Assembly: GCA_964647725.1 (NCBI GenBank)
Contig: CAZYJI010000001.1
Coordinates: 74,264 to 138,263, forward strand
Origin: an uncultured Alphaproteobacteria bacterium
Lineage (GTDB): Bacteria; Pseudomonadota; Alphaproteobacteria; SHNJ01
Reading direction: 5' to 3'
Length of the DNA stretch: 64,000 bases
This document shows, piece by piece, positions 32,031 through 46,804 of this stretch. The translations under genes were made by a program, and so were the position numbers. Positions within the stretch are counted from its first letter, which is position 1. Each line of letters starts with the position of its first letter. The notes under the pieces were generated by a model. It saw only the letters and a program-made list of their open reading frames with translations. It searched no databases and was not told the DNA's origin.

Positions 32031-32051
32031 TGGTGCCGGAAGAGGACTCGA
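32031..32051. repeat. attL-like direct repeat (copy of tRNA-Leu 3' end, 1 indel)
   Basis: Sequence tggtgccggaagaggactcga matches 46718-46740 apart from one missing C. Confidence 0.75.
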
Positions 32052-32324
32052 TTAAGGCGTCTAAACTATTGATATTTATCATGATAATAGTATGATAAAT
32101 ATATAGTACCCCCACCGATACCCCCAGTAACATTAGCTGCCAGTATGGCACCAAGTTCTGGCAAGGCAGTAAACATCATGGGGTTTTGAAAGTCAATTTG
32201 TATCGGCCTTTTTTATTTTATCACCCCACCCCCGTGGCAGGAGGGGGGCGGGCAAAATCACTTTCCTGCCACCGATCTACAAAGCATCCCGCGAGGATTT
32301 TTAAAATTTTAAAATTGGCCTGCG

Positions 32325-32750
32325 ATGGAACAGATGACCGACTTCCCCTACCGTAGATTCGTTCAAATACCGATGCAACTGGTCATGTGCCACGACATGC
32401 ACGGCTCGGCCATGAAAACTTACGGTGCTCTATGCCTATTCGCGAATAAGAAGAACATATGCTGGCCCTCCATCCACACCCTCGCCCGCATCACAGGACT
32501 TTCTAAACGGCAAATAGCACGGCATTTGAAGGCGCTGGAGAAGAAGGAACTCATCATTATAAAACGGCGAGGTAAAAGCAGAGGCAAGCGCGGCGCAACC
32601 AGTGTCTATAAACTGGCTTTTGATTTTCGTGGCTCTTCCTTCATTTGGCAGCAAATTATGGCGGGCAGGCGACATGTATGGCAGGGAGAACCAAAAACAA
32701 ATCGGAAGACATGCGAATCTGAAGAAGGTTTGGGGGTCGTACACCTCTAA
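32325..32750 (+). CDS. Winged-helix HTH_36-like protein (island replication/regulatory protein)
   Basis: Motif ICWPSIHTLARITGLSKRQIARHLKALEKKELIIIKRRGK, the HTH_36 pattern common in integrative elements. Confidence 0.6.
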   Translation: MEQMTDFPYRRFVQIPMQLVMCHDMHGSAMKTYGALCLFANKKNICWPSIHTLARITGLSKRQIARHLKALEKKELIIIKRRGKSRGKRGATSVYKLAFDFRGSSFIWQQIMAGRRHVWQGEPKTNRKTCESEEGLGVVHL

Positions 32751-32893
32751 ATCATTGATTTACCTTGCAACCGTCGCGCGGGGATGAGTGCGCAGATATA
32801 ACAGCCTGTATTTGCCATTTTGTTGCTGTGTCCGCTCTGTACTCTTCCCATGCTCCTCCCATTCTTTCTTAGAAGTTAAGGGGCACAAGTAAA

Positions 32894-33160
32894 TTATTTT
32901 TTCTCAGTCAACGCTAGCAGTTCTTCCAGTTTTTCGGGATAGTCCAGGCCGAGAAAGTGTAGATAATCTAGAAACTCGAGCGCATCCATTCTGCGCTCGA
33001 ATCGCTCTATCTTTGACAATTGCCATTGGCCCAGGCCGGTCTGTTCGGCGATATCATTTTGCTTGATTCCCTGTTTTTTGCGCTCTTCCACCAGCCAATT
33101 GAGCAGGCGGCGGTAGCGCTTATCGTAAATCGTTGCAATCCTTGATTTTGTCTTGGCCAT
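32894..33160 (-). CDS. XRE-family HTH transcriptional regulator (island repressor candidate)
   Basis: HTH region LVEERKKQGIKQNDIAEQTGLGQWQLSKIERFER. Start taken at the internal Met (MAKTKS). Divergent from the lipoprotein operon. Confidence 0.65.
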   Translation of the reverse strand: MAKTKSRIATIYDKRYRRLLNWLVEERKKQGIKQNDIAEQTGLGQWQLSKIERFERRMDALEFLDYLHFLGLDYPEKLEELLALTEKK

Positions 33161-33232
33161 ACCCCTAGGGTTGCATGCCATTATAGCATATGCCAAAATA
33201 GCCAATATTTCACATAAATACGGGGTTAAATT

Positions 33233-33844
33233 ATGATTAGAGCAATAACTTTGGCGGCTATCTTATTATTAAGCGGATGCGTAACCACGCAGCGTTACGC
33301 GCAAAACTACACAACTATTGGCGAAGATCAGCAGGTTTGTGAACAGATTAATAAAGGTTTTCCGGAAATGGTGGATTGCCTCAATGAAAAAGTGACCCTT
33401 AAAGCCACGCAGCGAGGGCCGGATGTTGACTTGCAGCTGGCATATGTCACTAGGGCGCGCGCACTAGCGCAGAAAGTGCGCGACGGAAAGATTAGTGATA
33501 GCACCGCGCGCAAAACATTGGCCAAAGAGAAAGTTATCTTAGACGATCGCCTGGCCGAACGGCAAAATCAATATTATGAATCGCAACGACAAAAAGCGGC
33601 TGCGCCGGTACCAACCAACACTGACAATTTAGCTATTTTAAACTGCATTCAGGCCGCCAATTTAATTCCAAGATCGGGCGTAGGAGGTCCGGCTGCCGCT
33701 ATTGCTTCGTGCCACGAGAATCCTTATCGAGCAGAAGATAGATTTCAGCGGGAAAAAGAAGATATGGATCGCCGAAATCGAAAAATGATATGCAAGCCAG
33801 ATTACGCCGGTAAAGCTTTAGAATGTAGTGAGGAACCATTTTAG
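33233..33844 (+). CDS. Hypothetical Cys-rich lipoprotein
   Basis: Lipobox LLLSGC at residues 12-17 and several paired cysteines in the mature part. First gene of a three-gene + strand module. Confidence 0.55.
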   Translation: MIRAITLAAILLLSGCVTTQRYAQNYTTIGEDQQVCEQINKGFPEMVDCLNEKVTLKATQRGPDVDLQLAYVTRARALAQKVRDGKISDSTARKTLAKEKVILDDRLAERQNQYYESQRQKAAAPVPTNTDNLAILNCIQAANLIPRSGVGGPAAAIASCHENPYRAEDRFQREKEDMDRRNRKMICKPDYAGKALECSEEPF

Positions 33845-33846
33845 CC

Positions 33847-34089
33847 ATGACACGGAATCTAGTTTATGTTCCCGCCTCTTGTTACGATAAGAAAATATCT
33901 GAAAATTTAAAGTTAGCCCTTCTAAATTTGGCAAACCTTAAGCCTGAAGACTTGAAGCGCTTTACTTTCGTGGAAAGAATGATTCTTATCGACGAAGCCT
34001 TCTATGCCCTTAAGAAAGGAGTCTATAATAGGCTCGATGTTCTATCAGATGAAACAAACCAAAAATATGGTGCTCACGCCATTAAATAA
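33847..34089 (+). CDS. Hypothetical protein (80 aa)
   Basis: ORF 3 nt downstream of the lipoprotein gene. No recognisable motif. Confidence 0.4.
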   Translation: MTRNLVYVPASCYDKKISENLKLALLNLANLKPEDLKRFTFVERMILIDEAFYALKKGVYNRLDVLSDETNQKYGAHAIK

Positions 34090-34188
34090 CGTCTTGGATC
34101 AAGCCAACCCTGAACTCCAGAAATGCAATAGTAATGGCGATCTAAAACCATTTCCCTTATACTATTTGAAAATGTGCTTAGGTGAGCA

Positions 34189-35520
34189 ATGGAAACAAAG
34201 AATTCTTCCGCGCATTCTCAATGCCCTTTAGCCGCTGTTGATAAGCGGCTTGAAGATGCCCATCGGCTTTGGCACCAAGCAGAACAATCTTATTTTGATC
34301 CTGAAGCTTTTCGGTTGGCAGCTCAGAACACCATACAGACTCTGCGCACCGTTTCTTTCGTTCTGCAAAATCATAAGCGGACAATACCAGACTTCGATCA
34401 ATGGTATGGCTCGCAACAAGAAAAGATGCGTGCCAATCCGTTACTGCGCTGGATAGTGGAAGCTCGCAATAAAATTGAGAAACAAGGCGATCTTGAATCG
34501 CATAGCTTAGTTCGAGTGGAAACCATCGCCTCATATCTCGATAATGGCCCAAGCATTGAAATTCCCTTTGATCTTTTTTCTCCTTCCACTCCAGCTCTCC
34601 TTCGGGAAAGCATCCCCAAAACTCCATTAGGCGATTACATAGTTAAATATGGGTCTTTGCGCATACAACGGCGGTGGGTTGAAAACAGCTTGCCCGATTA
34701 CGAACTCCTTGACGCATTGGCCATCGCTTATGGTCATATGTCCGAACTAGTTCATGACGCTCATCGTCAAATGAGCCTACCGCCGCCTAGCGTTATTAAC
34801 TGTGACGGCACTAAGGAGTTTACGTCACCCATGTTAAAGGGGAGGATGCCGTGCATGATAGGCCATCATGATCCGCGCTCTCTTATTATTTCACTAAAAG
34901 ACGGTAAAATTTTAGAATTTGAACGCAGAGGAATGATTTCTGATACGAAGATCGCGGAAATCGCTTCTGAACGTTATGAGATTGGTCCCGATAATTTCAA
35001 AAAGAATGTAGCTAACATAGAAGAACTAGCAGCAATGTATTTTCAAATTGCTCGTACGCTATTTCTAAAAGATGGTTATCACATAGATACGCTATTGTTT
35101 ATACGCGACATTAAAGTAATTAGTATGTGCGAAATTAGGATGGATAACTCACGACAGAACTATCATATTATGCGCAAAATGGCGGATGAAGCTACTCGTA
35201 TCGGAGCTGACGCCGCCATAAGAATAAATGAGATATGGGCGGCTCCCGCCAATGAATTGAGCCAGTATCAACGACCAGCTGAATATGTAGGTCGCAAGGA
35301 AGGACTCGCCTTATTTTTGGTAGGGAAAACAGGGCATCCTATTCATTTTTACGCTGACATAACAAGAAAAGAAGGTAAGGCAAGTCTCGGAGATACAGTT
35401 ATTCATCACGGTGGCGCCCCTTTCATTTTTGCACCTTTTTATCAAGCATGGGGACGTACAATACCTACAGAGTGGGAGACTCTTGAGGAAACGATGGAGG
35501 GGCTTAATAAGCAATCGTAA
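34189..35520 (+). CDS. Hypothetical protein (443 aa), uncharacterized island cargo
   Basis: Long ORF with no motif I can recognise. Cytoplasmic, with no TM or signal peptide. Confidence 0.55.
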   Translation: METKNSSAHSQCPLAAVDKRLEDAHRLWHQAEQSYFDPEAFRLAAQNTIQTLRTVSFVLQNHKRTIPDFDQWYGSQQEKMRANPLLRWIVEARNKIEKQGDLESHSLVRVETIASYLDNGPSIEIPFDLFSPSTPALLRESIPKTPLGDYIVKYGSLRIQRRWVENSLPDYELLDALAIAYGHMSELVHDAHRQMSLPPPSVINCDGTKEFTSPMLKGRMPCMIGHHDPRSLIISLKDGKILEFERRGMISDTKIAEIASERYEIGPDNFKKNVANIEELAAMYFQIARTLFLKDGYHIDTLLFIRDIKVISMCEIRMDNSRQNYHIMRKMADEATRIGADAAIRINEIWAAPANELSQYQRPAEYVGRKEGLALFLVGKTGHPIHFYADITRKEGKASLGDTVIHHGGAPFIFAPFYQAWGRTIPTEWETLEETMEGLNKQS

Positions 35521-35530
35521 TAAATTAATT

Positions 35531-35995
35531 TTAGGCCGCTTGCGCCGCTTCAATTTCAGCGAGATCCATTGCGAAATCAAAAACTATCTGGATTGGTTCC
35601 GCTTCCACATGCGCATCGTTGTAGCTGTCCACATCAGTTTTAAGTTGACGACAGTCTCCCACTATCGCTTGCCGTCTTTGCTGAAATGATATTTGCATAT
35701 GGTGTCTGGGAGCTGTGCGAATATCATCCCAAAGCACCATTTGTTCATCACCTTTGCGCGTAGAAGCAGGATGCAAGAGCCTTACACGACGCCCTTTTTT
35801 ATCCGTGATATATTCTTCACGCATAGCTGAAGCTACATCTTCCGCGCATTTGCTTATTGCGGCAGAAGCTGGAAGCTCCCAACGACCAGTGCGAATAGCC
35901 CAGGCCGCAATTGTTTTTGCAGCAGCAGGCCAAGGCTCACCCGAGCCTCTGTAGTCCTCAACAATTTTCTGCATTTGTTTAGTATATGTTGCCAT
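35531..35995 (-). CDS. Hypothetical protein (154 aa), downstream of higA-peptidase fusion
   Basis: ORF 10 nt after the HigA-like gene on the same strand. No motif recognised. Confidence 0.4.
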   Translation of the reverse strand: MATYTKQMQKIVEDYRGSGEPWPAAAKTIAAWAIRTGRWELPASAAISKCAEDVASAMREEYITDKKGRRVRLLHPASTRKGDEQMVLWDDIRTAPRHHMQISFQQRRQAIVGDCRQLKTDVDSYNDAHVEAEPIQIVFDFAMDLAEIEAAQAA

Positions 35996-36005
35996 AAGTG
36001 CTCTC

Positions 36006-37142
36006 CTATATGTTTATTGGTCCTGTGTGGCCATATCCGTCGGTAAGTGCGGACTGAATTATAATATGCCGTACTTTTAATTGATGCCTTCTGAATAAAT
36101 CCCATCGTTCCGTGCGCCTTTGTAACTGGCCAGCTACTATGCCTGGATGACGCTTAATTAGGCGCGCAAATCCAATCAAATTCTTTTCTGAATACATTGG
36201 ATCAAGACGAGCTATGAAATGCTTTATTTCTTTTTCCGGAACACAAAAATTACTAGCCGCTTGATTAGCTGCTTTTTCACAATCATTTGTATTGGAAGCA
36301 GGCTCATTTGCTTCAAACTCATCCACCATAATAGAATCTTTGCCATCCCCTCTAAGTACATGCTCAATCTCATGCCGAAGGGTAAACCAAAACCTATCTA
36401 TATAGTCTCCTTTAAGAGAGAGACCTATTACGGGAGAGTGTGCGTTCAGCCAGAAACACACCCCATCAATCTTTGATCCAGGAATAGGTTCTACTATTAC
36501 AAATCGTACCCCACATTCAGATAAAATCCCAGGAATGTGGCGCGCTTCTTCTGGCTCCGTCATTAGTAATTCAAGATTAACTAAAGCAGAACGCAATTTC
36601 TGTTCATTATATTTAGGAATTTGTAACGCAGTTGCCAAATGTTTTACACGAAAAATCCATGCGAGCTGTGCTGAGGAAAGATTCTCACTATAATTTCTCC
36701 GCGCGGCATGGGATAATTTCGGCATGTCATCTAAGGATGTAATACCAAAGAAATCAAGAACCCTAGTTTCTATTACTTCAAAGTTTTTTGAAGACTCAAT
36801 CCAGCCGCGCTTTATCATTTCTCGAACTGGAAATTTTTCACGAAGTTGGGCTTCTTTCCTAATTCTTTCAGGAACAGGATCGACGCGCGATAGTTGATAT
36901 GCAGATTCAAGATTGAGCCAAAATTCCGCACTAGTGCCAAATGCAGCAGCGATCGCTTGGGCTGTCTCCGGAGTGATGCCGCGCTTACCACTTATAATTT
37001 CGCTAATTAAGCGTGGCGGACGACCGATAATTTCGGCAAATTCTCCCTGATTCCAACCGCGCGCTTCTAGCTCGTCATGAAGATATTCTCCTGGTGGAAA
37101 TATCTCTGCTGGTTTTCTTTGTTTCATGGGTCTGTCTCTCAT
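36006..37142 (-). CDS. higA: HigA-like XRE HTH antitoxin fused to ImmA/IrrE-type (COG2856) zinc metallopeptidase domain
   Basis: N-terminus PGEYLHDELEARGWNQGEFAEIIGRPPRLISEIISGKRGITPETAQAIAAAFGTSAEFWLNLESAY matches the HigA family. The C-terminal domain carries an HEIEH zinc-binding motif. Confidence 0.7.
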   Translation of the reverse strand: MRDRPMKQRKPAEIFPPGEYLHDELEARGWNQGEFAEIIGRPPRLISEIISGKRGITPETAQAIAAAFGTSAEFWLNLESAYQLSRVDPVPERIRKEAQLREKFPVREMIKRGWIESSKNFEVIETRVLDFFGITSLDDMPKLSHAARRNYSENLSSAQLAWIFRVKHLATALQIPKYNEQKLRSALVNLELLMTEPEEARHIPGILSECGVRFVIVEPIPGSKIDGVCFWLNAHSPVIGLSLKGDYIDRFWFTLRHEIEHVLRGDGKDSIMVDEFEANEPASNTNDCEKAANQAASNFCVPEKEIKHFIARLDPMYSEKNLIGFARLIKRHPGIVAGQLQRRTERWDLFRRHQLKVRHIIIQSALTDGYGHTGPINI

Positions 37143-37147
37143 AATAA

Positions 37148-37477
37148 TCAGTGATAATCTGTAATTTCTATAACTCTAATCGTTTTCATCAGGGCGGTTT
37201 CATGCACTTCAATAATCAGCCGCCATTGATCATTTATCCTCAACGAATATTGATGCTTACGATCACCTTGCAATTTTTTAAAACGGAGGCCCCTTAATTG
37301 ATGCAAATCCTTTTCATCAGCAACGGCTCGAATAGCCTGCATGACTTTTCGGAACCCTTTGACTATCGGCTGGGAGAAGCCAGCCGTAAATTTCGGATCG
37401 GTTTCTAGTCGATCTAAATCAGCATCATCAAATTCAACTTCCATTTTCTTTATACCCTGTTTTTTTGGAATTGTCAA
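37148..37477 (-). CDS. higB: HigB-like RelE/ParE-superfamily toxin (plasmid maintenance system killer protein)
   Basis: C-terminal region GDRKHQYSLRINDQWRLIIEVHETALMKTIRVIEITDYH, typical of HigB. It sits upstream of its antitoxin with a 5-nt gap, the reversed TA order that is the HigBA hallmark. Confidence 0.7.
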   Translation of the reverse strand: MTIPKKQGIKKMEVEFDDADLDRLETDPKFTAGFSQPIVKGFRKVMQAIRAVADEKDLHQLRGLRFKKLQGDRKHQYSLRINDQWRLIIEVHETALMKTIRVIEITDYH

Positions 37478-37591
37478 GTACGAAATTACACATAATGTAA
37501 AAATGATATATTGTAAATAAAAATATAATCCATATATAACAATATGTTAATCATGTATTACTGCATAGAGGGGGCAAAAAAGTGGTGAGCT

Positions 37592-38701
37592 TTAAGCTTT
37601 TGGACTTGCCACAATGGTTTTATCGTAGCCAGGGAATTTCTGCTTTAATCTTTCGACTGTCGCCCGCCATTTAGGTTTTGTAGGCTTACACACAGTGTTT
37701 TGATTACCAAAAAAACCTATTTCCTTAATTGCTTTTTCCAAAGACACGGCTTGAATCCATTCGATAGGCACGAAATATTCGCAGCGCTCAGGATCGTCCA
37801 AATATTCACGATGATAGCTGGCTCGTTTTACAACATCTAGCACTGGCATTTTGCCCTGGGAGGTGTCTACTTGGAATGTTGCGGCGGGCTGGACTCGGCC
37901 AATAGCGCGACCGACCCCAACATATCCAGAGCCGGGTATATTCACCCAAACACGGTCGCCGGGGTTAAGCAGTTGTAGGGTTTTGCTATACCATCTACCG
38001 CCCCCGCCACAAATGAATCCATATTGTACAGCATCCGCCCAAGACCGCACCTCACTTTCACCGAACGATGAATAAAATTCACCGTTCCAAGGTTCGCTTT
38101 GGTTATCCGGTGCAGTGGCGGCGCTAATTTGAGTTTGGGCCGGGTCTAACAACCAGGCGCGGCTTAGCAATTGATCGTCACCATAATTAAAAACCTGAAA
38201 GCAAACTACATTGATTGGAATATCGCGCTCGCTAAGATAGGCAATTATGCGTTCACTGCTTTCATCTATAGCCGAAGCAACCACAATAATTTGGTGGCTT
38301 TCGTTTAAAGATTCTTCATCCAATTCCTGGTTAAAACGCTTGTGGAAATCTTCCGCAAGATTGCCGCCTTTAGTAAACCGACTATAAATAGCATTGATAT
38401 TCTCGGGTTTTAATTTAGAAACCCAGCTTGCATAGTCAATCGCCTGCGCAACAACTTCGCGCGGGGTGCGGTCTCTCTTTAATTCTATCAATATCAGCAC
38501 GCCATCCGGCGCAATTGCCAATAAATCGATTCGCCCACCATAACCGGTGTCTTCTTGCCGACCAATAAACATCCAATTTTCGTCTAATATCCTAGGATCA
38601 GCAAGAATCATGTCTTCCAGCAATCTTTCGCTGGGCAGAATCGCCTCGATCAATGGCTGGGGTTGTTGACCAACTTTCCAAATGGCATGACGAATGGGCA
38701 T
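37592..38701 (-). CDS. NucS-like PD-(D/E)xK nuclease domain fused to PUA/EVE-like domain (candidate modification-reading nuclease)
   Basis: N-terminal half GGRIDLLAIAPDGVLILIELKRD is the NucS/RecB-type D...ExK core. C-terminal half GDRVWVNIPGSGYVGVGRAIGRV...YFVPIEWIQAVSLEKAI resembles the EVE/PUA-like fold. Lies 5 nt downstream of the MmeI-like gene. Confidence 0.5.
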   Translation of the reverse strand: MPIRHAIWKVGQQPQPLIEAILPSERLLEDMILADPRILDENWMFIGRQEDTGYGGRIDLLAIAPDGVLILIELKRDRTPREVVAQAIDYASWVSKLKPENINAIYSRFTKGGNLAEDFHKRFNQELDEESLNESHQIIVVASAIDESSERIIAYLSERDIPINVVCFQVFNYGDDQLLSRAWLLDPAQTQISAATAPDNQSEPWNGEFYSSFGESEVRSWADAVQYGFICGGGGRWYSKTLQLLNPGDRVWVNIPGSGYVGVGRAIGRVQPAATFQVDTSQGKMPVLDVVKRASYHREYLDDPERCEYFVPIEWIQAVSLEKAIKEIGFFGNQNTVCKPTKPKWRATVERLKQKFPGYDKTIVASPKA

Positions 38702-38706
38702 GAGTT

Positions 38707-41700
38707 TTAGCCCGCTGCTTCTGGCAAGAAACTAATTTTATCTATTTCTTGCATAGTTTTTGCGGTTTCGGCTAGCGCCACAATTATGCGCTGCCAATGA
38801 CGAATGTCTTCAATAGTCAATTTTCGGTCTTTTCGGTCTTTCAGCCATTTTTGTGCAGGCTGATAACCGCCAATATAAAAATCCCAGGCTTCTTGTGGCA
38901 CATTGCCAAAGTATTGAGAGTCATTAATCCATACTTTGCCTTTTTCAAAACGTTGTTTTTTAACTTCATGCAGCCCATCAACCGGATATGTGGTAATTTG
39001 AGTATCCAATCTTGGACTTTCCATTAAATGCAACTCACGCAAATAAGCGCCTTTCTCTGCTAATCCATGAAAAATCTTAGTGTTCGTTGGGTAAGGAATA
39101 TAAGGAAAGTCTGACTTCAAAAACTCAGCATAGCGCTTACGATAGGTGGGGCTGTGGAGTACTGCATAGACATAATCAAACAAAGCCTCTGGCGTGGTGT
39201 CAGGAACTGTTTTCTTGATTTGGCCGAAGATTTTAGGATCGAGATTGGGTCTTCTTTGTTCTTTGCTTTGAAGCCCTTCCCCATAAAGCCAAAGGGGATA
39301 ATATAAACAAATACCTTTATTGCTGATGAAGGTACGGTTATCAATTAGTTCTCTACTAACAAAGCTATAACAATAATCCGGCACATTGTAGGCATAGTGT
39401 CTCATACTCAACAAACCGAGATTCTCTCCCGCACAAAAGTGGCGCATGACTTCTGGTCTAGGCATACATAGGAAACCACGAGATTGCCCCGTGTAATAAG
39501 TCCAGCGCGTATCGAAAGGTCGATAGCTAATAGCTCTGATATTATCAGGATTTAAGCCAGTATTCTTCAAATCATTCTGCGCCCACTCCACCCGCCAATC
39601 TCGCACATCCTTACCCAAATTGTATTCTTGGCGCGCATCTTCTATTGGCAGCATGCTAAAATTTTGAATGGTACGGATAAGATCATCGCGCTTTTCATGA
39701 ATAGTCAATTCATCCCGCGCCGTAACGATACCAACGGAATTGATGGGGAACAAAACATTCAAGGCAAAGCCTTTGTGATATTCAGCGCCTGATTTGTTAT
39801 CTTGGGGAATAAAAAAATAAAACGGCGCACGTAGAACCAGTTGTTTAAATGGCAGTTTGTTAATGCTGCCTATTTGTAGTGCATCATATTTGTTTTCGCG
39901 GCTGCCCCATAAATCGGCATGAAAAACCCTAGCTAGTTGCTTTTGTGTTTTTCCAGTTGGTTTGGCCTTAACCGCGATAATTATTGCTACTCCTTGTTGA
40001 ATATCAAACACATTCTTATCAGGCTTGCCATCAGGGGATGTTTCTTTTTGCTTTGCATTACCGTGTAAATCCAGAACATAGATATCATCAAAAGTGTTCA
40101 GTAAATGCCAGCGCATACCACGAAAAGTAGGATTATTTAGATATCCATGATTGGTTATATAAGCCAAAATTCCTTCCGCATTTTTTTGTATATAATGCTC
40201 TCCGAGACGTATGAATTTTACATAATCATCATTTAGCCATTTGGAGTTTCTTTCTTTAAGCTTGCCCCCGCTAGGCTCCTGTTTATATGCATTCATCAAG
40301 CCCATAATCCAATCACCCTTATTGGCACTTTCGCCACTATAGGGAGGGTTGCCGATAGCCACCATAATAGGCATATCTTTTTTGATGCGGCTGGCTTCGT
40401 TAGCTTCCCGGGATAGCCAGTTGGCAAACAAGGTATCAACATCAGGGTGGTACTCTTCAAGACTGTTCGTTAGATAAACACTTAAGCGCGGAGGATTATT
40501 GGCGTTAGATGGCTTGTAACCGGTTTCCTGTAGCAATAGATCTAGCTTCATATGACACATAGCATAAGAAGCCATTAACAATTCAAACCCGTGCATGCGC
40601 GGCAACAAATCGCGCTCAATATAGCTGCTCCATAAACCCTCTTGTCCTTGGAATTTTTTATAAATTTGTTTAATGATTTCGGCTAGGAAAGTGCCGGTGC
40701 CTGTGGCTACGTCCAGAAGCTGAACTTTATGTACTTCACGCACTTCCATTTTGCGACCAGTTTTAGTTCGTTGATCTTTTTCTTGTGATTCTATTTCAAT
40801 ACTAACTTTACTGGTATCAGCCAGCCCGTCTTTAAGATTAAAATGTTTTTTCAACACATCATCAACGGCACGAACAATAAAATTCACTACTGGTTCCGGC
40901 GTGTACCATACCCCCCGCGCCTTACGGAGGGACTTATCGTATTCCGCGAGAAAAGTTTCATAAAAATGAAGGATGGGGTCGTTCTGTCCCGTGGCTGTCC
41001 CGAAATCATGCAGGATAGATGGAAGATCGGTATAGCGATACACCTCGCACAGTGCGTCGATAATCCAAATAACGCGATCATCTAATTCAGGGCCGGCTAT
41101 ATAATGAAATAATTGTCTTAGAAATGGATTGCTTTTAGGGATTAAGGTCAAGGCCTCTGCGCGGGAAAAATCATGTAAGCTTTTATCATGTAAACGTGCA
41201 GTAAATAAACCATAAGTGATCGTTTGGGCATAGACATCTGCAAATTGTTTCGCATCCATGTCATGAACTAGTACTTTCTGAAATGCCGTTAATTGATCAT
41301 GTAGGGAGGTGTTCTCATTGCTTTCCAAAAGAGCTTTATGAAATACATCACGCATTAGGCGCGCTTTACGCGCCATCATCTCGGCCAATTTTTTAGCCGA
41401 TTTAATCGTTTGGCCTTGGAAAGCAGCAAAATCAATCAAGTGGTCTTTGAGACGATTATAATTTTCAGGTATCGAATTAATTTTCCCAGACGGGCCTATT
41501 TCGCCTATCCGGATCGTTTCAACTTTTTTGCCGTGCAAGAAAAATCGAAATTCAAGATAGTCCGTTAGAATCAAATTATCTAAGCTATCAAAATAACGCT
41601 TTAGTTGATCGTCTTTCTCGGCTTTATCTAGATTGATCCCTATATCTTTAGCCTCGATATAACCAACATCAATTTTACGTCGGGTCAAAATAAAATCAGG

Positions 41701-41856
41701 CGCGCCGCATTCGATACGTTTAGGATCATTTGTCGCCATAACATCCGGCATAATAGCTTCGACAAGGATTTGTAATGCTGGACGGTAAGCATGCTCCCCC
41801 GCTATGCCGGAAGCGTGGCGCTTTTTAAGATCGTCAACATATATATTGAAGGGCAT
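38707..41856 (-). CDS. MmeI-family type IIL (type IIG) restriction-modification enzyme, single-chain endonuclease + N6-adenine MTase + TRD
   Basis: 1049 aa. N-terminal PD-ExK motif (APDFILTRRKIDVGYIEAKDIGINLDKA...YF) parallels the MmeI D70/E80/K82 region. MTase motif I is LLDVATGTGTFL and motif IV is NPPYSG. The long C-terminal region is consistent with a TRD. Confidence 0.72.
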   Translation of the reverse strand: MPFNIYVDDLKKRHASGIAGEHAYRPALQILVEAIMPDVMATNDPKRIECGAPDFILTRRKIDVGYIEAKDIGINLDKAEKDDQLKRYFDSLDNLILTDYLEFRFFLHGKKVETIRIGEIGPSGKINSIPENYNRLKDHLIDFAAFQGQTIKSAKKLAEMMARKARLMRDVFHKALLESNENTSLHDQLTAFQKVLVHDMDAKQFADVYAQTITYGLFTARLHDKSLHDFSRAEALTLIPKSNPFLRQLFHYIAGPELDDRVIWIIDALCEVYRYTDLPSILHDFGTATGQNDPILHFYETFLAEYDKSLRKARGVWYTPEPVVNFIVRAVDDVLKKHFNLKDGLADTSKVSIEIESQEKDQRTKTGRKMEVREVHKVQLLDVATGTGTFLAEIIKQIYKKFQGQEGLWSSYIERDLLPRMHGFELLMASYAMCHMKLDLLLQETGYKPSNANNPPRLSVYLTNSLEEYHPDVDTLFANWLSREANEASRIKKDMPIMVAIGNPPYSGESANKGDWIMGLMNAYKQEPSGGKLKERNSKWLNDDYVKFIRLGEHYIQKNAEGILAYITNHGYLNNPTFRGMRWHLLNTFDDIYVLDLHGNAKQKETSPDGKPDKNVFDIQQGVAIIIAVKAKPTGKTQKQLARVFHADLWGSRENKYDALQIGSINKLPFKQLVLRAPFYFFIPQDNKSGAEYHKGFALNVLFPINSVGIVTARDELTIHEKRDDLIRTIQNFSMLPIEDARQEYNLGKDVRDWRVEWAQNDLKNTGLNPDNIRAISYRPFDTRWTYYTGQSRGFLCMPRPEVMRHFCAGENLGLLSMRHYAYNVPDYCYSFVSRELIDNRTFISNKGICLYYPLWLYGEGLQSKEQRRPNLDPKIFGQIKKTVPDTTPEALFDYVYAVLHSPTYRKRYAEFLKSDFPYIPYPTNTKIFHGLAEKGAYLRELHLMESPRLDTQITTYPVDGLHEVKKQRFEKGKVWINDSQYFGNVPQEAWDFYIGGYQPAQKWLKDRKDRKLTIEDIRHWQRIIVALAETAKTMQEIDKISFLPEAAG

Positions 41857-42022
41857 TATATCTGTGCCATGAGGTTATAATTTGTCAGAAACAATAATAC
41901 TCACGACAATTAATCGCAACAATAATTAACGTAATATTGGCTTCAATAATGTAATTAAGCTTCTGCCTGAAGATCATTACGTTCATTGCTCGGTGGGCAC
42001 AATTTCTATTGCCGATAGATAG

Positions 42023-44128
42023 TTAATTCTTTTCTTTCTGGGCTTCGCTTTCTGCAACTGAACGTTTTTGTTCCCCACAAAACTCACGAATGGCAGCGCG
42101 TTCTTCATATTCGTATAATGATCCATTGCTGGATTTAGCCGCCACAGCGCCACATGCAAGGTTCTCAAAGCTTTCTTGTGTTGCGGGGGCAGTCATTTGA
42201 GATTTATTGGGGACAGTTTCCGCCACGTCCCATTCGTCAGAAAGCGTAGGTTGTGGCGTTGTGGCGGCTGGAGCCTGCCCTCCCTCTAAATAACGCGCAA
42301 AAGCATCTGAGAATTGTGAAATCTCATATCCTTTAGGAGTGTTATAACTATCCAGTCTGACGGTCTTACTTTTAATCCCAAATGGCTTTAATATCATAGC
42401 TACATGGTTCGGGGTTATTGGCTTGTCACGCTTCCAACTCACCCATGGGCGTTCTTCATCTCTGCATAGAAAATCAATCAGAGAGACGGTTGAAATTTTA
42501 TCTCCCAGAACTTCAAAAGCAGCCTTGATGTCCCGAAGCATTTCTGTACCTACACTGGTGACATCTGGCCCTTCTTTTGACAAAGCAATAGCCGCATCAA
42601 AAGCTTTCTTTTGCCACCGGCTTCCTGCCAGAAACGCAATTGCAAGTAAAGGTTCCCAATTATCCGCACCACGGTCTGATAAACTATCTGGTAAAACCGG
42701 TTTGAGTGATGAAAGTGCCTGAATACTATCATCCGCCAGCCTTTTTAGTTGCGATCTAAACTTCTCAAATGAATCTTGGTTTACATCGCGTAATTTCTGC
42801 ACTTTTTCCGATTTTAATTTGCGGCGTAACTCAATGATAATTGACCGGTCACGTAGCGTATCATAAAGATCCCCGATTAAAGCAATAACCTTTGCTCCCC
42901 AAGTACTGAATTTTTTGGGTTCATGCTCATCCCCGACTGAACGAATGACAAAAGCAGTGGTGCGCGTATGCCCAGAATTAATAATGCCACGCAATTCATC
43001 TTTGCCTGCCAGAAAAGTATCAGCTTCGTCTATTAAAAGAGTAGGTTTACATAATTCAATTGTGCGAAACATTGCTGCGGGAGTTATATTAGCGGCAGGA
43101 AGCGGCTTGTTTACTAACCCATTAATTGCGGAAATTAAAGAAGTTTTTCCACACCTTTTTTCTGGGGAGCAGATAGCCAAAATTGGCGCAGTATGAAAAG
43201 CATCAATTACCCAAGTAAACAACACCCATAAAGTTACCGCAGTTTTGCTGTGTTTTGAAAGTATAACAAGAGAATCTATTATTGTAGCTATCTCATCAAA
43301 TAGCGCTGCGGCATCAACAGGTTCTGGCCATGGCTCTATTTCGGGAAAATCAAAGCCGCCTCTATTATGCTGACTTTGGGGAAATATGCGTTGCTCTTTG
43401 ACTTCTTGATCTAAGACAGATCTTCGTATTCCCAAACTAGCAGCATGTCGTGTTCTGACCCGGTCATATTCGATAGGTGATAAAGCGGCCAACTGACGTA
43501 CAATATTGGCTAGATTAATTTCTTCATTGTTAGCAAGTGTCGATATTAAGGGCGCATTTTCAACCCAATCCAAAAGATTTTTTTCCTGAAACTCAAATGG
43601 AAGTAAGTCAGCTAAGTCCCATTTCGGAGGCAAGCCTTCAGGCAACTGAACGATTCTAATTGATTTAGCCCCAATTGTGGCAAGTTGGTTGACTATAATT
43701 GAAGCATATTTTTTCCCTGCTTCATCGTTATCGGGCCAAACGACGGTGTCTCGCCCAGCTAAAGTTGACCAGTCAGTTTTATGCGCAGCTTGAGAGCCGA
43801 AGCTACTTGTTACAATAACACAGTGAGGAAAAAATCTTCTGGCTGCTTCTGCCGCTTTCTCACCTTCCACAATAATTACTAGCGCATCGTGTTTTTCAAT
43901 AATTTCAAGCAGATTATACAGCGGGCGCAATTCTGGAGCTTTAATTATCCAACGGCCATCTAGGAATGACCATGGCCTAAATTCTTTCTCTTCTTTGCCG
44001 CTAGTATTAACCTTGTTATAGCGCGTCACTACAAACGATAACTCGCCTCTTGCATCAAAATATTCCCATGCGCCAGCAAACTCTCCAATTTTAGGCTGCT
44101 GAAGCAGCTTTGAATAATCTTTTGTCAT
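42023..44128 (-). CDS. TOPRIM primase / P-loop NTPase (P4-alpha-like, DUF3987-type) replication protein
   Basis: TOPRIM acidic motifs (IIVEGEKAAEAA, VVWPDNDEAG) in the N-terminal 150 aa. Walker A (PEKRCGKTSLISAI) and Walker B-like LLIDEADTF in the central domain. Confidence 0.7.
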   Translation of the reverse strand: MTKDYSKLLQQPKIGEFAGAWEYFDARGELSFVVTRYNKVNTSGKEEKEFRPWSFLDGRWIIKAPELRPLYNLLEIIEKHDALVIIVEGEKAAEAARRFFPHCVIVTSSFGSQAAHKTDWSTLAGRDTVVWPDNDEAGKKYASIIVNQLATIGAKSIRIVQLPEGLPPKWDLADLLPFEFQEKNLLDWVENAPLISTLANNEEINLANIVRQLAALSPIEYDRVRTRHAASLGIRRSVLDQEVKEQRIFPQSQHNRGGFDFPEIEPWPEPVDAAALFDEIATIIDSLVILSKHSKTAVTLWVLFTWVIDAFHTAPILAICSPEKRCGKTSLISAINGLVNKPLPAANITPAAMFRTIELCKPTLLIDEADTFLAGKDELRGIINSGHTRTTAFVIRSVGDEHEPKKFSTWGAKVIALIGDLYDTLRDRSIIIELRRKLKSEKVQKLRDVNQDSFEKFRSQLKRLADDSIQALSSLKPVLPDSLSDRGADNWEPLLAIAFLAGSRWQKKAFDAAIALSKEGPDVTSVGTEMLRDIKAAFEVLGDKISTVSLIDFLCRDEERPWVSWKRDKPITPNHVAMILKPFGIKSKTVRLDSYNTPKGYEISQFSDAFARYLEGGQAPAATTPQPTLSDEWDVAETVPNKSQMTAPATQESFENLACGAVAAKSSNGSLYEYEERAAIREFCGEQKRSVAESEAQKEKN

Positions 44129-44355
44129 TTTCTTGCTCCCGGGTCGTTAATTAAGCCCAGTTTCTGTAAGGATATTTTTACTTCAACTTGCGAACAACCA
44201 GCAAAACAATGCCAAAGCAGTTTCCCATTTTTTTCCGCGATAGACAAAGAAGGGGATCTATCATTATGAGCGGGGCAACAAGCTTTGCCACGCTTGCCAT
44301 CCCATTGGCCTTTTAGTTTAAGAGTTACTTCTTCTGCGCTATATTTTTTACACAT
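44125..44355 (-). CDS. CHC2-type zinc-finger protein (primase zinc-binding domain, separate ORF)
   Basis: Motif CPAHNDRSPSLSI...WHCFAGC matches the DnaG-type CHC2 zinc ribbon. The stop overlaps the TOPRIM gene start (ATGA). Confidence 0.6.
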   Translation of the reverse strand: MCKKYSAEEVTLKLKGQWDGKRGKACCPAHNDRSPSLSIAEKNGKLLWHCFAGCSQVEVKISLQKLGLINDPGARK

Positions 44356-44401
44356 GATAATCCTTCATGTCGCTGTGCACTGCAACGCTATCGGCATTTC
44401 T

Positions 44402-44620
44402 TTATTGATTGCTGACAGCAACAGAATTTAGGAATTTCTGGATATCAGATACGCGCCACGCAGTAATGCGTTCGCTTAGCTTGACAGGTTTTGGGTATCG
44501 GCCGGTTTTTATGCCTTCCCAGAAGGTCGATTTGCTAACCGGTATAAGCTTTAAAACGTCCGGCAGCCTTAAATAGCCGTCATTATCAAGGGTATTATTG
44601 GTTTTCATAGGTTGCTCCAT
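44402..44620 (-). CDS. alpA: AlpA-family phage regulatory protein / excisionase-like DNA-binding protein
   Basis: Motif YLRLPDVLKLIPVSKSTFWEGIKTGRYPKPVKLSERITAWRVSDIQKFL matches the AlpA/prophage CP4-57 regulatory family. Confidence 0.75.
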   Translation of the reverse strand: MEQPMKTNNTLDNDGYLRLPDVLKLIPVSKSTFWEGIKTGRYPKPVKLSERITAWRVSDIQKFLNSVAVSNQ

Positions 44621-44703
44621 CCAGTTGAATCTGGTTGGATTCTATGAGAGCCGTGATAGGCCCTGGGCGAATTCGCCTAAATAAAAAGCGAATTCGCCTT
44701 TTA

Positions 44704-45345
44704 TTATTCTTTGGATTCTTCTGCTATATACTCCACTGACGCATCAGCATGTTTTCTTATAGTTCCATCATCCATGGAAAACCCACAGGCTTGAATACGG
44801 TTACTTATTTTCCCTACAGCCTCTCTGCTCGGATAACCATAATGGCTTTTCAAAATACAGCCCAAAATTTTCATAAGCGATTTATTTTCTTTAGCCAAAG
44901 AGGCTTGATTTACGATTTTTTGTAATTGCTCTTTAAGCTTTTCATTCTCTTCCATTAAAACATTGCATTGGGCTTTGTAATCTACAGCGGATAATTTCTT
45001 CTTTTCATATGCGGCCATCAATGCTTTCGGAGGCGCGATGCCCCTCTGTATTAGCCAGTCAACAAATTTTATGGCTGAAACAAGCCCTATTTGCTCCTTG
45101 AAAATATTATCTCCAGACCTTTCCATAACCCTCAAGAGTTTTTGTGAGTAACTAGGAAGCTGGCTAGGATAATTAATCACCTTAGTGCCATAAGGATTTA
45201 GATTTATATTATCTTCATCTGGATTATGCCCATATGCCAATAACGCTGCTTCGGAAAGACTCCAATAATCCGAGGCCATCCAATCTTCGTAATTTATGTT
45301 ATGATGAAAAGTATCCAATACTTTAGTTTCGTCAAATTTAGGCAT
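44704..45345 (-). CDS. Hypothetical coiled-coil protein (213 aa)
   Basis: ORF between alpA and int with a central coiled-coil (QCNVLMEENEKLKEQLQKIVNQ). Confidence 0.45.
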   Translation of the reverse strand: MPKFDETKVLDTFHHNINYEDWMASDYWSLSEAALLAYGHNPDEDNINLNPYGTKVINYPSQLPSYSQKLLRVMERSGDNIFKEQIGLVSAIKFVDWLIQRGIAPPKALMAAYEKKKLSAVDYKAQCNVLMEENEKLKEQLQKIVNQASLAKENKSLMKILGCILKSHYGYPSREAVGKISNRIQACGFSMDDGTIRKHADASVEYIAEESKE

Positions 45346-45346
45346 T

Positions 45347-46570
45347 TTATGAGACCCTTTTTCTATTCTTAAATGCTACTACGCGGCCAGTATCAGCAAT
45401 AACCGAATCAACATAATCCGCCCATTGCTGCATCATCTTCTTCCGCTCTGGCAAATATTCAGCGCGGTTATACGCGGCGCGGACACTATTGCGCTCTTTA
45501 TGCGCTAGCTGCCGCTCTATTACATCCGGTTTAAAGCCAAGTTCATTCAATGTGGTAGAAGCAAGCGCGCGGAATCCATGGCCCACCAGCTTTCCTTTAT
45601 AGCCCATCCTTTGCAGCACTTGATTAATTGCGTTTTCGCTTATCATTGGATTTTTTCGCCGTTGGTAAGATGGAAGCAGCAGCTCAGAGCGTCCCGTTAA
45701 TTTTCTCAATTGTTGCAAGAGTTTTATGACTTGTTTGGAAAGCGGTACGATGTGCTCTCTGCGCATTTTTGTGGCATGAGCTGGCATAATCCAGACATTG
45801 TCTTTGAAATCAAAATCCGTCCATTTAGCGTGGCGCAGTTCGCCCTGCCGAACAAATGTAAAAAGCAGAATTTTAATAGCCAGCCGGATTTCTTCTGCCG
45901 TGCCTACAGTTTCCAGCTTGTGCCAGAGTTGAGGGATTTCTTTCGCATTGATGGTTGGATAATGACTCGCCTTATGAGCTTTAAGCGCTCCCCGCAAGTC
46001 AGCCGCAGGATTATATTCGGTGCGACCGGTTGCGGTAGCATATCGAAAAATAACCGAACAGGTCTGCAACACACGATGCGATAACTCTGTTGCATCCCGT
46101 TTTTCTACCTTCCGTATAACGTCCAGTAATTCGACAGGTTTAATGTTTTTGACCGGCACATGGCCAAGAAAGGGAAATATATTGGCTTCTAAGCGCCTCA
46201 AAATCTTGGCGCTATGCGCTTTTGTCCATTGGACTTGATTGGCTGCATGCCACTCCAAGGCAATAGCTTTAAAGCTATTATTGGCGTCAAATTGCGCCAT
46301 ACGCTTATCTTCGCGCCGTTTTAGGCTTGGATCAATTCCATTAGCTAGCTGTTTCCGCACTTCCAGGCGCTTTTCCCGCGCTTCGGATAGGCTAACTTCG
46401 GGATAGGCCCCAAAGGTCAAAAGCTTCTCTTTACGATGGTAGCGGTACTTAAAGCGCCAGATTTTCGAGCCTTTAGGGGTCACATAGAGAAATAACCCTT
46501 CTCCATCCGCAATCTTTTGGGGTTTGGCTGTCGGCTTGACATTACGAATTTTGGTGTCGGTGAGGGCCAT
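45347..46570 (-). CDS. int: P4-type tyrosine integrase (DUF4102 N-terminal + phage_integrase catalytic domain)
   Basis: N-terminus LTDTKIRNVKPTAKPQKIADGEGLFLYVTPKGSKIWRFKYRYHRKEKLLTFGAYPEVSLSEAREKR is the DUF4102 arm-binding domain. The C-terminus has the R...HxxR...Y catalytic pattern (HGFRALASTT...RAAYNRAEY). Confidence 0.88.
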   Translation of the reverse strand: MALTDTKIRNVKPTAKPQKIADGEGLFLYVTPKGSKIWRFKYRYHRKEKLLTFGAYPEVSLSEAREKRLEVRKQLANGIDPSLKRREDKRMAQFDANNSFKAIALEWHAANQVQWTKAHSAKILRRLEANIFPFLGHVPVKNIKPVELLDVIRKVEKRDATELSHRVLQTCSVIFRYATATGRTEYNPAADLRGALKAHKASHYPTINAKEIPQLWHKLETVGTAEEIRLAIKILLFTFVRQGELRHAKWTDFDFKDNVWIMPAHATKMRREHIVPLSKQVIKLLQQLRKLTGRSELLLPSYQRRKNPMISENAINQVLQRMGYKGKLVGHGFRALASTTLNELGFKPDVIERQLAHKERNSVRAAYNRAEYLPERKKMMQQWADYVDSVIADTGRVVAFKNRKRVS

Positions 46571-46717
46571 AAGGATATCCGTTTATACCCCCAACGATAC
46601 CCCCAAATGTGCCGGATGTCAACCGACCCCCTCGGACATCAGCGGACGTAAAAACCTTATTTTATCTATGTTAAAATGATTCTGTCGGATGTCATCGGAC
46701 ATCCTCGGAGGGAGTAA

Positions 46718-46804
46718 TGGTGCCCGGAAGAGGACTCGAACCTCCAAGATGTTACTCACTGGTACCTGAAACCAGCGCGTCTACCAATTCCGCCATCCGG
46801 GCGC
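46718..46804 (-). tRNA. tRNA-Leu (anticodon CAG)
   Basis: Minus-strand read: GCGCCCGGAUGGCGGAAUUGGUAGACGCGCUGGUUUCAGGUACCAGUGAGUAACAUCUUGGAGGUUCGAGUCCUCUUCCGGGCACCA. It has a 7-bp acceptor stem, an anticodon loop UUCAGGU (CAG), a long variable arm, GGUUCGAGUCC in the T-loop and an encoded CCA. Confidence 0.85.

Follow-up and report, generated by a model that had tools for sequence, protein, structure and literature searches.

A probable DrdV-like type IIG/IIL restriction-modification enzyme carried by a tRNA-Leu(CAG)-integrated element of an uncultured alphaproteobacterium

Our analysis of a 64,000-nucleotide stretch of DNA (hereafter the window) indicated that its 1049-aa restriction-modification (RM) enzyme very probably belongs to the DrdV-like lineage and is a stand-alone type IIG/IIL enzyme made of a single chain, with an MTase-TRD module that is common to type ISP enzymes. 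Its gene is carried on an integrase-encoding element of ~14.7 kb, inserted in tRNA-Leu(CAG) (Table 1); the host, judged by its ThrRS, is an uncultured alphaproteobacterium. This kind of enzyme is known, and the window gene is a further member of it.

Results and discussion

Gene, domains and motifs

The open reading frame described in an earlier sequence-only reading of this DNA was present and intact on the minus strand. The encoded protein matched Pfam Type_ISP_C (PF18135; E=5.8e-86, residues 702-1036), and also N6_Mtase and Eco57I, while the PADLOC profile REase_MTase_IIG (PDLC03610) scored 1088 bits; matches of this strength to Type_ISP_C and PDLC03610 mean that the ORF is not a chance one. 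Another PADLOC type IIG profile, PDLC03631, reached 339 bits vs. 1088 bits for PDLC03610, so that the profile matched best is not the one expected for a DrdV-type protein. Since the PDLC03610 match starts at residue 6, the N-terminal nuclease region is covered as well. A megablast of the RM gene against the E. coli genome gave no match, and in a scan for sigma-70 promoters and terminators the region around it showed no excess of sites over shuffled sequence.

Taken together, sequence, profiles and predicted structure give the domain order as nuclease, helical connector, gamma-class m6A MTase and TRD, the last being of the Type_ISP_C type overall (residues ~636-1049). The AF2 models on which the predicted fold rests had a pLDDT of 84 for the full-length protein and 87.5 for residues 1-155 alone. 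The MTase motifs quoted in the sequence-only reading were recovered at residues 380-391 (LLDVATGTGTFL) and 502-508 (GNPPYSG), and so was its N-terminal PD-ExK motif, as GAPDF with D54 and GYIEAKD with E68 and K70. Its functional class likewise stood, namely a PD-(D/E)xK nuclease, a gamma N6-adenine MTase and a C-terminal TRD in one polypeptide. The PD-(D/E)xK motif is intact and features of an ATP-dependent motor are absent (no ATPase or helicase Pfam family matched the protein at E<=10). No other MTase gene was found in the island, and the lack of a partner MTase fits a type IIG/IIL enzyme.

Table 1 Positions, within the window, of the RM gene, its predicted domains and motifs, and the landmarks of the island
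Feature	Position	Strand	Basis
RM enzyme ORF, 1049 aa plus stop	38707..41856	-	ATG start, uninterrupted; Pfam and PADLOC matches
PD-(D/E)xK endonuclease domain, ~residues 1-145 (boundary approximate)	41422..41856	-	AF2 model of residues 1-155
Catalytic motif G51-A-P-D54 ... G65-Y-I-E68-A-K70	41647..41706	-	Aligned to DrdV P63-D64 ... E79-S-K81
All-helical connector, ~residues 146-290	40987..41421	-	Seven helices in AF2 model
Gamma-class N6-adenine MTase domain, ~residues 291-635	39952..40986	-	Pfam N6_Mtase, Eco57I; aligned to DrdV, LlaBIII and LlaGI MTases
MTase motif I, AdoMet binding, D382-VATGTGT-F390	40687..40713	-	Conserved residues
MTase motif IV, catalytic, N503-P-P-Y506	40339..40350	-	Kept in 80/80 relatives
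TRD variable core, ~residues 636-880	39217..39951	-	Low identity; within/adjoining Type_ISP_C match 702-1036
Conserved C-terminal part of Type_ISP_C module, ~residues 881-1049	38710..39216	-	KSDFPYIPYP and GGYQPAQKWLKDR; aligned to DrdV, LlaBIII and LlaGI C-termini
P4-type tyrosine integrase	45347..46570	-	Pfam Arm-DNA-bind_3, Phage_int_M, Phage_integrase; NCBIfam PRK09692 7e-88
tRNA-Leu(CAG), island integration target	46718..46802	-	
att repeat in tRNA 3' part, CCGGAAGAGGACTCGA	46724..46739		Exact 16-nt direct repeat
Distal att repeat, same 16-mer, far island end	32036..32051		Exact repeat; GC drops from here to ~46000

Homology to DrdV

DrdV (RM.DrdV; PDB 7lo5/7lvv) is a type IIL/IIG enzyme of 1029 aa from Deinococcus wulumuqiensis that recognizes CATGNAC. 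It was the solved structure closest in sequence to the window protein (7lo5; phmmer 6.4e-35, family profile 7.2e-64 over MTase-TRD), and, like the window protein, it is a single chain of nearly the same length with the same four modules, its "helical connector" corresponding to residues ~146-290. The homology extended over the full length when structures were compared, with Foldseek searches of the full-length model returning DrdV at 6e-42 over ~1150 columns, followed by LlaBIII (1e-38), MmeI (1.5e-11) and PglX (3e-11). With the nuclease domain alone, the DrdV nuclease was retrieved at E 4.7e-6 (TM 0.70, rmsd 2.8 Å) and BpuSI came next at 3.7e-3, although BpuSI did not match in sequence even at E<=10. 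The active-site residues of DrdV are E25, D64, E79 and K81 (10.1101/2021.01.06.425610), and these align in register with E21, D54, E68 and K70 of the window protein. Homology of the nuclease domains rests on predicted fold and motif register, since their sequence alignment (2.5 bits) is not significant alone.

The two enzymes also differ. Identity over the structural alignment is only ~20%, and the window protein, unlike DrdV, contains an additional beta-hairpin of ~30 residues that lies between motifs X and I (in the AF2 model, a hairpin lies at ~343-376 inside the MTase). The TRD core is divergent from that of DrdV, so that neither the CATGNAC specificity nor the exact 10/8 cleavage distance can be transferred.

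Conservation among relatives

We compared the protein with 80 genomic relatives of 46-66% identity, the best match in the scan of species-representative genomes, a set that does not include the host, being 66% identical. E21, D54, E68 and K70 were invariant across 38 homologues, and the nuclease active-site residues were kept in 79-80 of the 80 genomic relatives, all of which also conserved the motif I residues D382, A384, G386 and F390. Mean identity to 37 homologues was 0.39 in the TRD core vs. 0.60-0.72 in the other domains; judged by these sequences, residues ~636-880 are the fast-evolving part of the enzyme. With regard to genomic context, no ORF family occurred beside the gene at more than 6 of the 80 related loci, and there was no conserved neighbor. 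The family is very large, and its members carry inconsistent names in public records ("predicted helicase", "type ISP restriction/modification enzyme", "N-6 DNA methylase").

Length relative to MmeI

The sequence-only reading had noted that the protein exceeds MmeI (919 aa) by ~130 residues, and had placed extra sequence between the nuclease and the MTase. A length of 1030-1070 aa is normal in the protein's own family, and the placement was not borne out. Specifically, the nuclease (~1-145) and connector (~146-290) have the same size as the corresponding parts of MmeI (1-155 and 156-300). Motif I and NPPY lie at 360-370 and 481-484 in MmeI (PMC4833311) vs. 382-390 and 503-506 in the window protein; only 22 extra residues therefore precede motif IV, inside the MTase at the hairpin of ~343-376, and ~108 of the 130 fall after NPPY.

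The island and its defense genes

The proposal that the gene is island cargo was upheld by the tRNA-Leu(CAG), the integrase, the exact 16-nt repeats and a lower GC content (0.41-0.45 inside the island vs. 0.49-0.52 outside). The RM enzyme, an adjoining PDC-S11 nuclease gene and a HigB/HigA-M78 toxin-antitoxin (TA) pair make up a small defense island. The PDC-S11 gene encodes a nuclease-like protein of 369 aa with a NucS-like PD-(D/E)xK domain, starts 5 nt past the RM stop on the same strand, and is a PADLOC defense candidate classed as single-gene. The TA toxin and neighboring ORFs had no PADLOC match even at E<=1. An assignment of the TA pair to PD-Lambda-2 was rejected, given that only the B component (HTH/M78) matches.

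Alternative assignments

The sequence-only reading had called the protein an MmeI-like type IIL/IIG enzyme. The single-chain type IIG/IIL class holds, and MmeI family membership does not. A true MmeI-family enzyme would be expected to recognize a site of 6-8 bp, to cleave 20/18 from it and to follow the MmeI specificity code. In favor of this, MmeI (type IIL, PDB 5hr4) and the window protein belong to the same functional class, are both stand-alone enzymes without a second MTase, and have the same domain order, the nuclease and spacer sizes noted above and an "FP.IP"-type motif after the TRD; a few homologues also carry a precomputed match to PF20473 (MmeI_Mtase). Yet the match to 5hr4 is one of remote fold only, the TRD is of a different family, and MmeI is outscored by DrdV and type ISP enzymes by 30 orders of magnitude in Foldseek. 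None of the MmeI_N, _hel, _Mtase, _TRD and _C Pfam domains was detected in the window protein at E<=10, and 5hr4 was absent from PDB sequence searches with phmmer (E<=1) and with the family profile (E<=10). Membership of the MmeI family has been defined by BLAST E<1e-20 to MmeI over the whole length (PMC2731913), and the window protein shows no significant whole-length similarity of this kind. We regard MmeI membership as already refuted at the family level and give it very little probability. The 20/18 cleavage suggested earlier is a trait of the MmeI family (20/18, +/-1), while DrdV, the nearest characterized relative, cuts 10/8 (10.1101/2021.01.06.425610). Similarly, re-engineering by the MmeI TRD rules, which had been put forward as a point of interest, is not directly transferable, as the window TRD differs (Type_ISP_C).

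The least probable of the alternatives is a type ISP enzyme, i.e., a nuclease-methylase that translocates, driven by ATP, and cleaves upon head-on collision. Type_ISP_C is indeed the strongest Pfam match, several homologues are named as type ISP enzymes by NCBI, and LlaBIII (4xqk) and LlaGI (5ffj) are close solved relatives of the MTase-TRD half, their MTase and Type_ISP_C modules being homologous to those of the window protein (E 1e-32 to 1e-61). However, they align only from their residues ~733/844 on. The window protein, at 1049 aa vs. 1570-1580, is ~500 residues shorter, lacks their RecA-like ATPase/translocase and coupler domains, and has a DrdV/BpuSI-type nuclease unlike theirs; its nuclease and MTase are joined by a helical bundle of ~145 residues, and no helicase or ATPase family matched at E<=10. 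It is also highly improbable that the protein is a non-cleaving MTase or specificity subunit of a multi-gene system (BREX PglX, DISARM DrmMI, MADS MAD2, YeeA-like). PglX has no active PD-ExK nuclease of its own and requires BrxA, B, C, L and PglZ. The window protein has a gamma-MTase plus TRD fold remotely in common with PglX/BrxX (3e-11), and weak MAD2 matches were obtained (PADLOC mad2 1.9e-14; NCBIfam 25 bits, which against a cut-off of 720 led us to reject a MADS MAD2 identity). Against this reading, there was no PADLOC PglX or DrmMI match, and PglX did not match in sequence even at E<=10. BREX, DISARM and MADS partner genes are absent from the island, where the neighbors are a primase-like gene, PDC-S11, the TA pair and the integrase, and the 80 related loci had no conserved neighbor. 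YeeA-type homologues are without the PD-ExK catalytic residues (PMC2731913), whereas these are intact and strongly conserved here. The sequence-only reading had allowed that PglX or other non-cleaving MTases might head the searches, with no alignable PD-ExK residues; instead, such proteins matched only remotely, and the PD-ExK residues could be aligned with the active site that has been defined by experiment in DrdV. Finally, the RM gene and PDC-S11 could form a two-gene unit in which the second nuclease is an auxiliary or back-up effector. The 5-nt spacing on the same strand suggests co-transcription, and the NucS-like domain and PADLOC candidacy of S11 also speak for such a unit. We consider it very unlikely, however, and rejected S11 as an obligate partner on co-occurrence: S11 homologues were beside 0 of the 80 RM relatives, they stand alone in unrelated TA and mobile contexts, and PADLOC classes S11 as a single-gene candidate.

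Proposed mechanism

For the DrdV-like single-chain enzyme that we favor, we infer methylation, cleavage, cut distance, one-strand modification and the need for multiple sites from DrdV, and all of these are analogies. The TRD/MTase clamp would bind a short asymmetric site and place one flipped-out adenine in the NPPY pocket. In the host's own chromosome, slow methylation of one strand would protect the site. Where incoming DNA carries several unmodified sites, monomers bound to them may come together by way of the connectors and nuclease domains, and the nuclease domains, acting in trans, would then cut both strands a short, fixed distance downstream. A cut at ~10/8, as in DrdV, is likelier than one at 20/18 as in MmeI. 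Neither an ATPase motor nor a partner gene would be involved; given the absence of ATPase and coupler domains and a nuclease of the DrdV/BpuSI type, a static multi-site assembly is expected rather than ATP-driven translocation and collision. The protein sequence does not by itself reveal the recognition site. The gene is apparently intact and ordinary; inactivity in the host is known for certain members of such families, e.g., DraRI of the MmeI family (PMC2731913).

A more speculative idea, to which we attach very little likelihood, is that the RM enzyme and S11 are co-transcribed and functionally coupled, for example with S11 stepping in as second effector once phages evade an m6A-sensitive enzyme; in a weaker version, the TRD might recognize a site new to REBASE. 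If true, the coupling would be a new two-gene arrangement, and in the weaker version the divergent TRD would provide a second scaffold for engineering, this one of the DrdV type.

Implications

Beyond annotation, the significance of our finding is small. The inconsistently named family members are best called DrdV-like type IIL/IIG RM enzymes, and they should not be expected to follow MmeI in 20/18 cutting or in the MmeI TRD code. With a new specificity, a scaffold of this DrdV type could make a useful reagent, although equivalent candidates number in the thousands. The element itself neatly illustrates a mini defense island integrated at a tRNA gene, with an RM enzyme, PDC-S11 and a TA pair on board.

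Relatives and active site of the RM enzyme

The restriction-modification (RM) ORF is plainly a real gene, because its product was matched by Pfam Type_ISP_C (5.8e-86, residues 702-1036), N6_Mtase and Eco57I, and by the PADLOC profile PDLC03610 'REase_MTase_IIG' (1088 bits, beginning at residue 6). All motif strings quoted in the sequence-only reading, which regarded the protein as MmeI-like, were recovered in its translation. Sequence searches of all PDB chains showed that its only true relatives were DrdV (7lo5/7lvv, 1029 aa; phmmer 6.4e-35, family profile 7.2e-64) and the type ISP enzymes LlaBIII (4xqk) and LlaGI (5ffj), with the alignment to the latter two limited to the methyltransferase (MTase) and target recognition domain (TRD) halves. 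MmeI, BpuSI and PglX were absent from the family-profile search of these chains even at E<=10, and no MmeI_* Pfam domain matched the protein at E<=10. Structural comparison was consistent in ranking: an AlphaFold2 model built from 38 homologues (mean pLDDT 84) retrieved DrdV as the top Foldseek match in the PDB (6e-42, about 1150 aligned columns) and LlaBIII as the second (1e-38), with MmeI (1.5e-11) and PglX/BrxX (3e-11) trailing by some 30 orders of magnitude.

Sequence alone aligned the N-terminal domain with DrdV at a non-significant 2.5 bits; nonetheless, the register was exactly that of the active site. In DrdV, D64 and E79 are the metal ligands, E25 completes the site, and K81 is the PD-ExK lysine, mutation of which abolishes catalysis (10.1101/2021.01.06.425610). 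When residues 1-155 were folded separately (pLDDT 87.5), the best PDB match was the DrdV nuclease domain (E 4.7e-6, TM 0.70, rmsd 2.8 Å, 150 columns), followed by the nuclease of type IIG BpuSI (3.7e-3). The active-site residues were invariant across the 38 homologues and kept in 79-80 of 80 genomic relatives (46-66% identity), all of which kept motif I and NPPY. Top matches to PglX or other non-cleaving methyltransferases, with unalignable PD-ExK residues, had been named as evidence against a restriction enzyme; since DrdV ranks first and these residues align, that objection falls away.

Domain layout

MmeI comprises a nuclease (1-155), spacer (156-300), MTase (301-620), TRD (621-825) and C-terminal bundle (826-919), and its motifs I and IV occupy 360-370 and 481-484, respectively (PMC4833311). 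With motif I at 382-390 and NPPY at 503-506, our protein therefore has only 22 extra residues before motif IV, and these form a beta-hairpin (about 343-376) within the MTase; the other ~108 follow NPPY, in a larger Type_ISP_C-type recognition module. The extra sequence earlier placed between nuclease and MTase is thus not a longer linker. Homologues span 1030-1070 aa among the best 120 listed and DrdV has 1029 aa, so that, judging from these sequences, 1049 aa is a normal length for the DrdV-like lineage. Identity to homologues was 0.60 in the nuclease, 0.71 in the connector, 0.72 in the MTase, 0.66 at the C-terminus and 0.39 in residues 636-880, a pattern expected from a diversifying, specificity-determining TRD.

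Genomic island

Features of the island and of the RM protein
Feature	Position	Strand	Remarks
Integrative element	32036-46739		~14.7 kb, in tRNA-Leu(CAG)
att repeat copy	32036-32051		
Winged-helix replication-initiator-like gene	32325-32750		
HTH regulator	32894-33205		
ORF, 443 aa	34189-35520	plus	unassigned; sole match phrog_19262 (unknown function), 3e-43
ORF, 154 aa	35531-35995	minus	
HigB-like toxin (109 aa), then HigA-like antitoxin (378 aa)	36006-37477	minus	
PDC-S11 gene, 369 aa	37592-38701	minus	PADLOC 6.6e-157; begins 5 nt past RM stop
RM ORF	38707-41856	minus	uninterrupted; ATG, 1049 codons, TAA
Toprim/DUF3631 primase-like gene	42023-44128		
P4-type tyrosine integrase	45347-46570	minus	Arm-DNA-bind_3, Phage_int_M, Phage_integrase; PRK09692 7e-88
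tRNA-Leu(CAG)	46718-46802	minus	
att repeat copy in tRNA 3' part	46724-46739		
RM nuclease	to near residue 145		AlphaFold2 model
RM nuclease motif	GAPDF (D54) ... GYIEAKD (E68, K70)		translation
RM/DrdV active-site pairs	E21/E25, P53-D54/P63-D64, E68/E79, K70/K81		
RM helical connector	to about residue 290		AlphaFold2 model
RM MTase motif I	residues 380-391		LLDVATGTGTFL; translation
RM MTase motif IV	residues 502-508		GNPPYSG; translation

That the gene is island cargo was confirmed by the tRNA, the directly adjoining integrase gene, an exact 16-nt repeat (CCGGAAGAGGACTCGA; about 21 nt if one indel is allowed) and a GC content of 0.41-0.45 between the repeats vs. 0.49-0.52 outside. Neither capsid nor conjugation genes were seen in the element, and its gene content suggests that it is replicative or mobilisable, of satellite or IME type, and carries a defence cluster. 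The flanks are chromosomal (RpoN, UppP, ThrRS). By its ThrRS (94% to a MAG and about 71% to Skermanella), the host belongs to the uncultured Alphaproteobacteria.

PADLOC lists PDC-S11 as a candidate single-gene defence family; it is very large, and its conservation is unusual, with members from different phyla sharing about 70% identity. The protein has an N-terminal NucS_C/DUF91-like PD-(D/E)xK nuclease domain; its C-terminal ~170 residues had no family match in domain searches. Because its homologues are solitary, in toxin-antitoxin (TA)-rich or mobile contexts, its adjacency to the RM gene suggests that defence genes have clustered in the island, not that the two form a functional pair. The antitoxin (HTH_3 and Peptidase_M78, ImmA/IrrE-type) matches PADLOC PD-Lambda-2_B (1.7e-46), and the remaining PD-Lambda-2 components were undetectable in the toxin and neighbouring ORFs even at E<=1. 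Between this pair and the island's far end, the 443-aa and 154-aa ORFs were assigned to no family by Pfam, NCBIfam or PADLOC; the same searches found no second methyltransferase in the island.

Classification and proposed mechanism

The single chain of nuclease, MTase and TRD supports the type IIL/IIG class proposed earlier. Membership of the MmeI family was not borne out, as the protein falls outside that family by its sequence test; the suggested 20/18 cleavage is an MmeI-family trait (PMC2731913), and a distance of about 10/8 is more likely here. A type ISP enzyme, as homologues are named in public records, was also considered: the MTase-TRD halves are common to LlaBIII, LlaGI and our protein, but the latter has no ATPase and this assignment was therefore rejected. 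With DrdV the top match by sequence, profile and fold, and active-site residues in register, the protein is most appropriately classified as a DrdV-like type IIL/IIG RM enzyme sharing the Type_ISP_C recognition module.

We infer its mechanism from DrdV, which cuts at 10/8 (10.1101/2021.01.06.425610). By this analogy, the monomer would bind an asymmetric site, with one adenine flipped into the pocket of the MTase. It could then either slowly methylate the flipped-adenine strand or, where several unmodified sites are present, assemble into dimers to tetramers; in such assemblies, nuclease domains acting in trans would cleave the two strands downstream, at a short and fixed distance.

Distribution of the family

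Homologue searches scored at least 8000 candidate clusters (all E<=1e-10), the best 120 of which were full length with 54-73% identity. Species-representative genomes from many phyla contain at least 589 loci. Among the 80 best of these loci, the most frequent flanking ORF family was present in no more than 6, a similar integrase lay nearby in 3, a Toprim homologue in 1, and an S11 homologue beside none. Family names in public records are inconsistent ('predicted helicase' (JGI), 'type ISP restriction/modification enzyme', 'N-6 DNA methylase', 'DNA methyltransferase'), and none conveys the DrdV-like single-chain nuclease-methylase architecture. The cluster is already modelled as type IIG by REBASE-derived PADLOC profiles.
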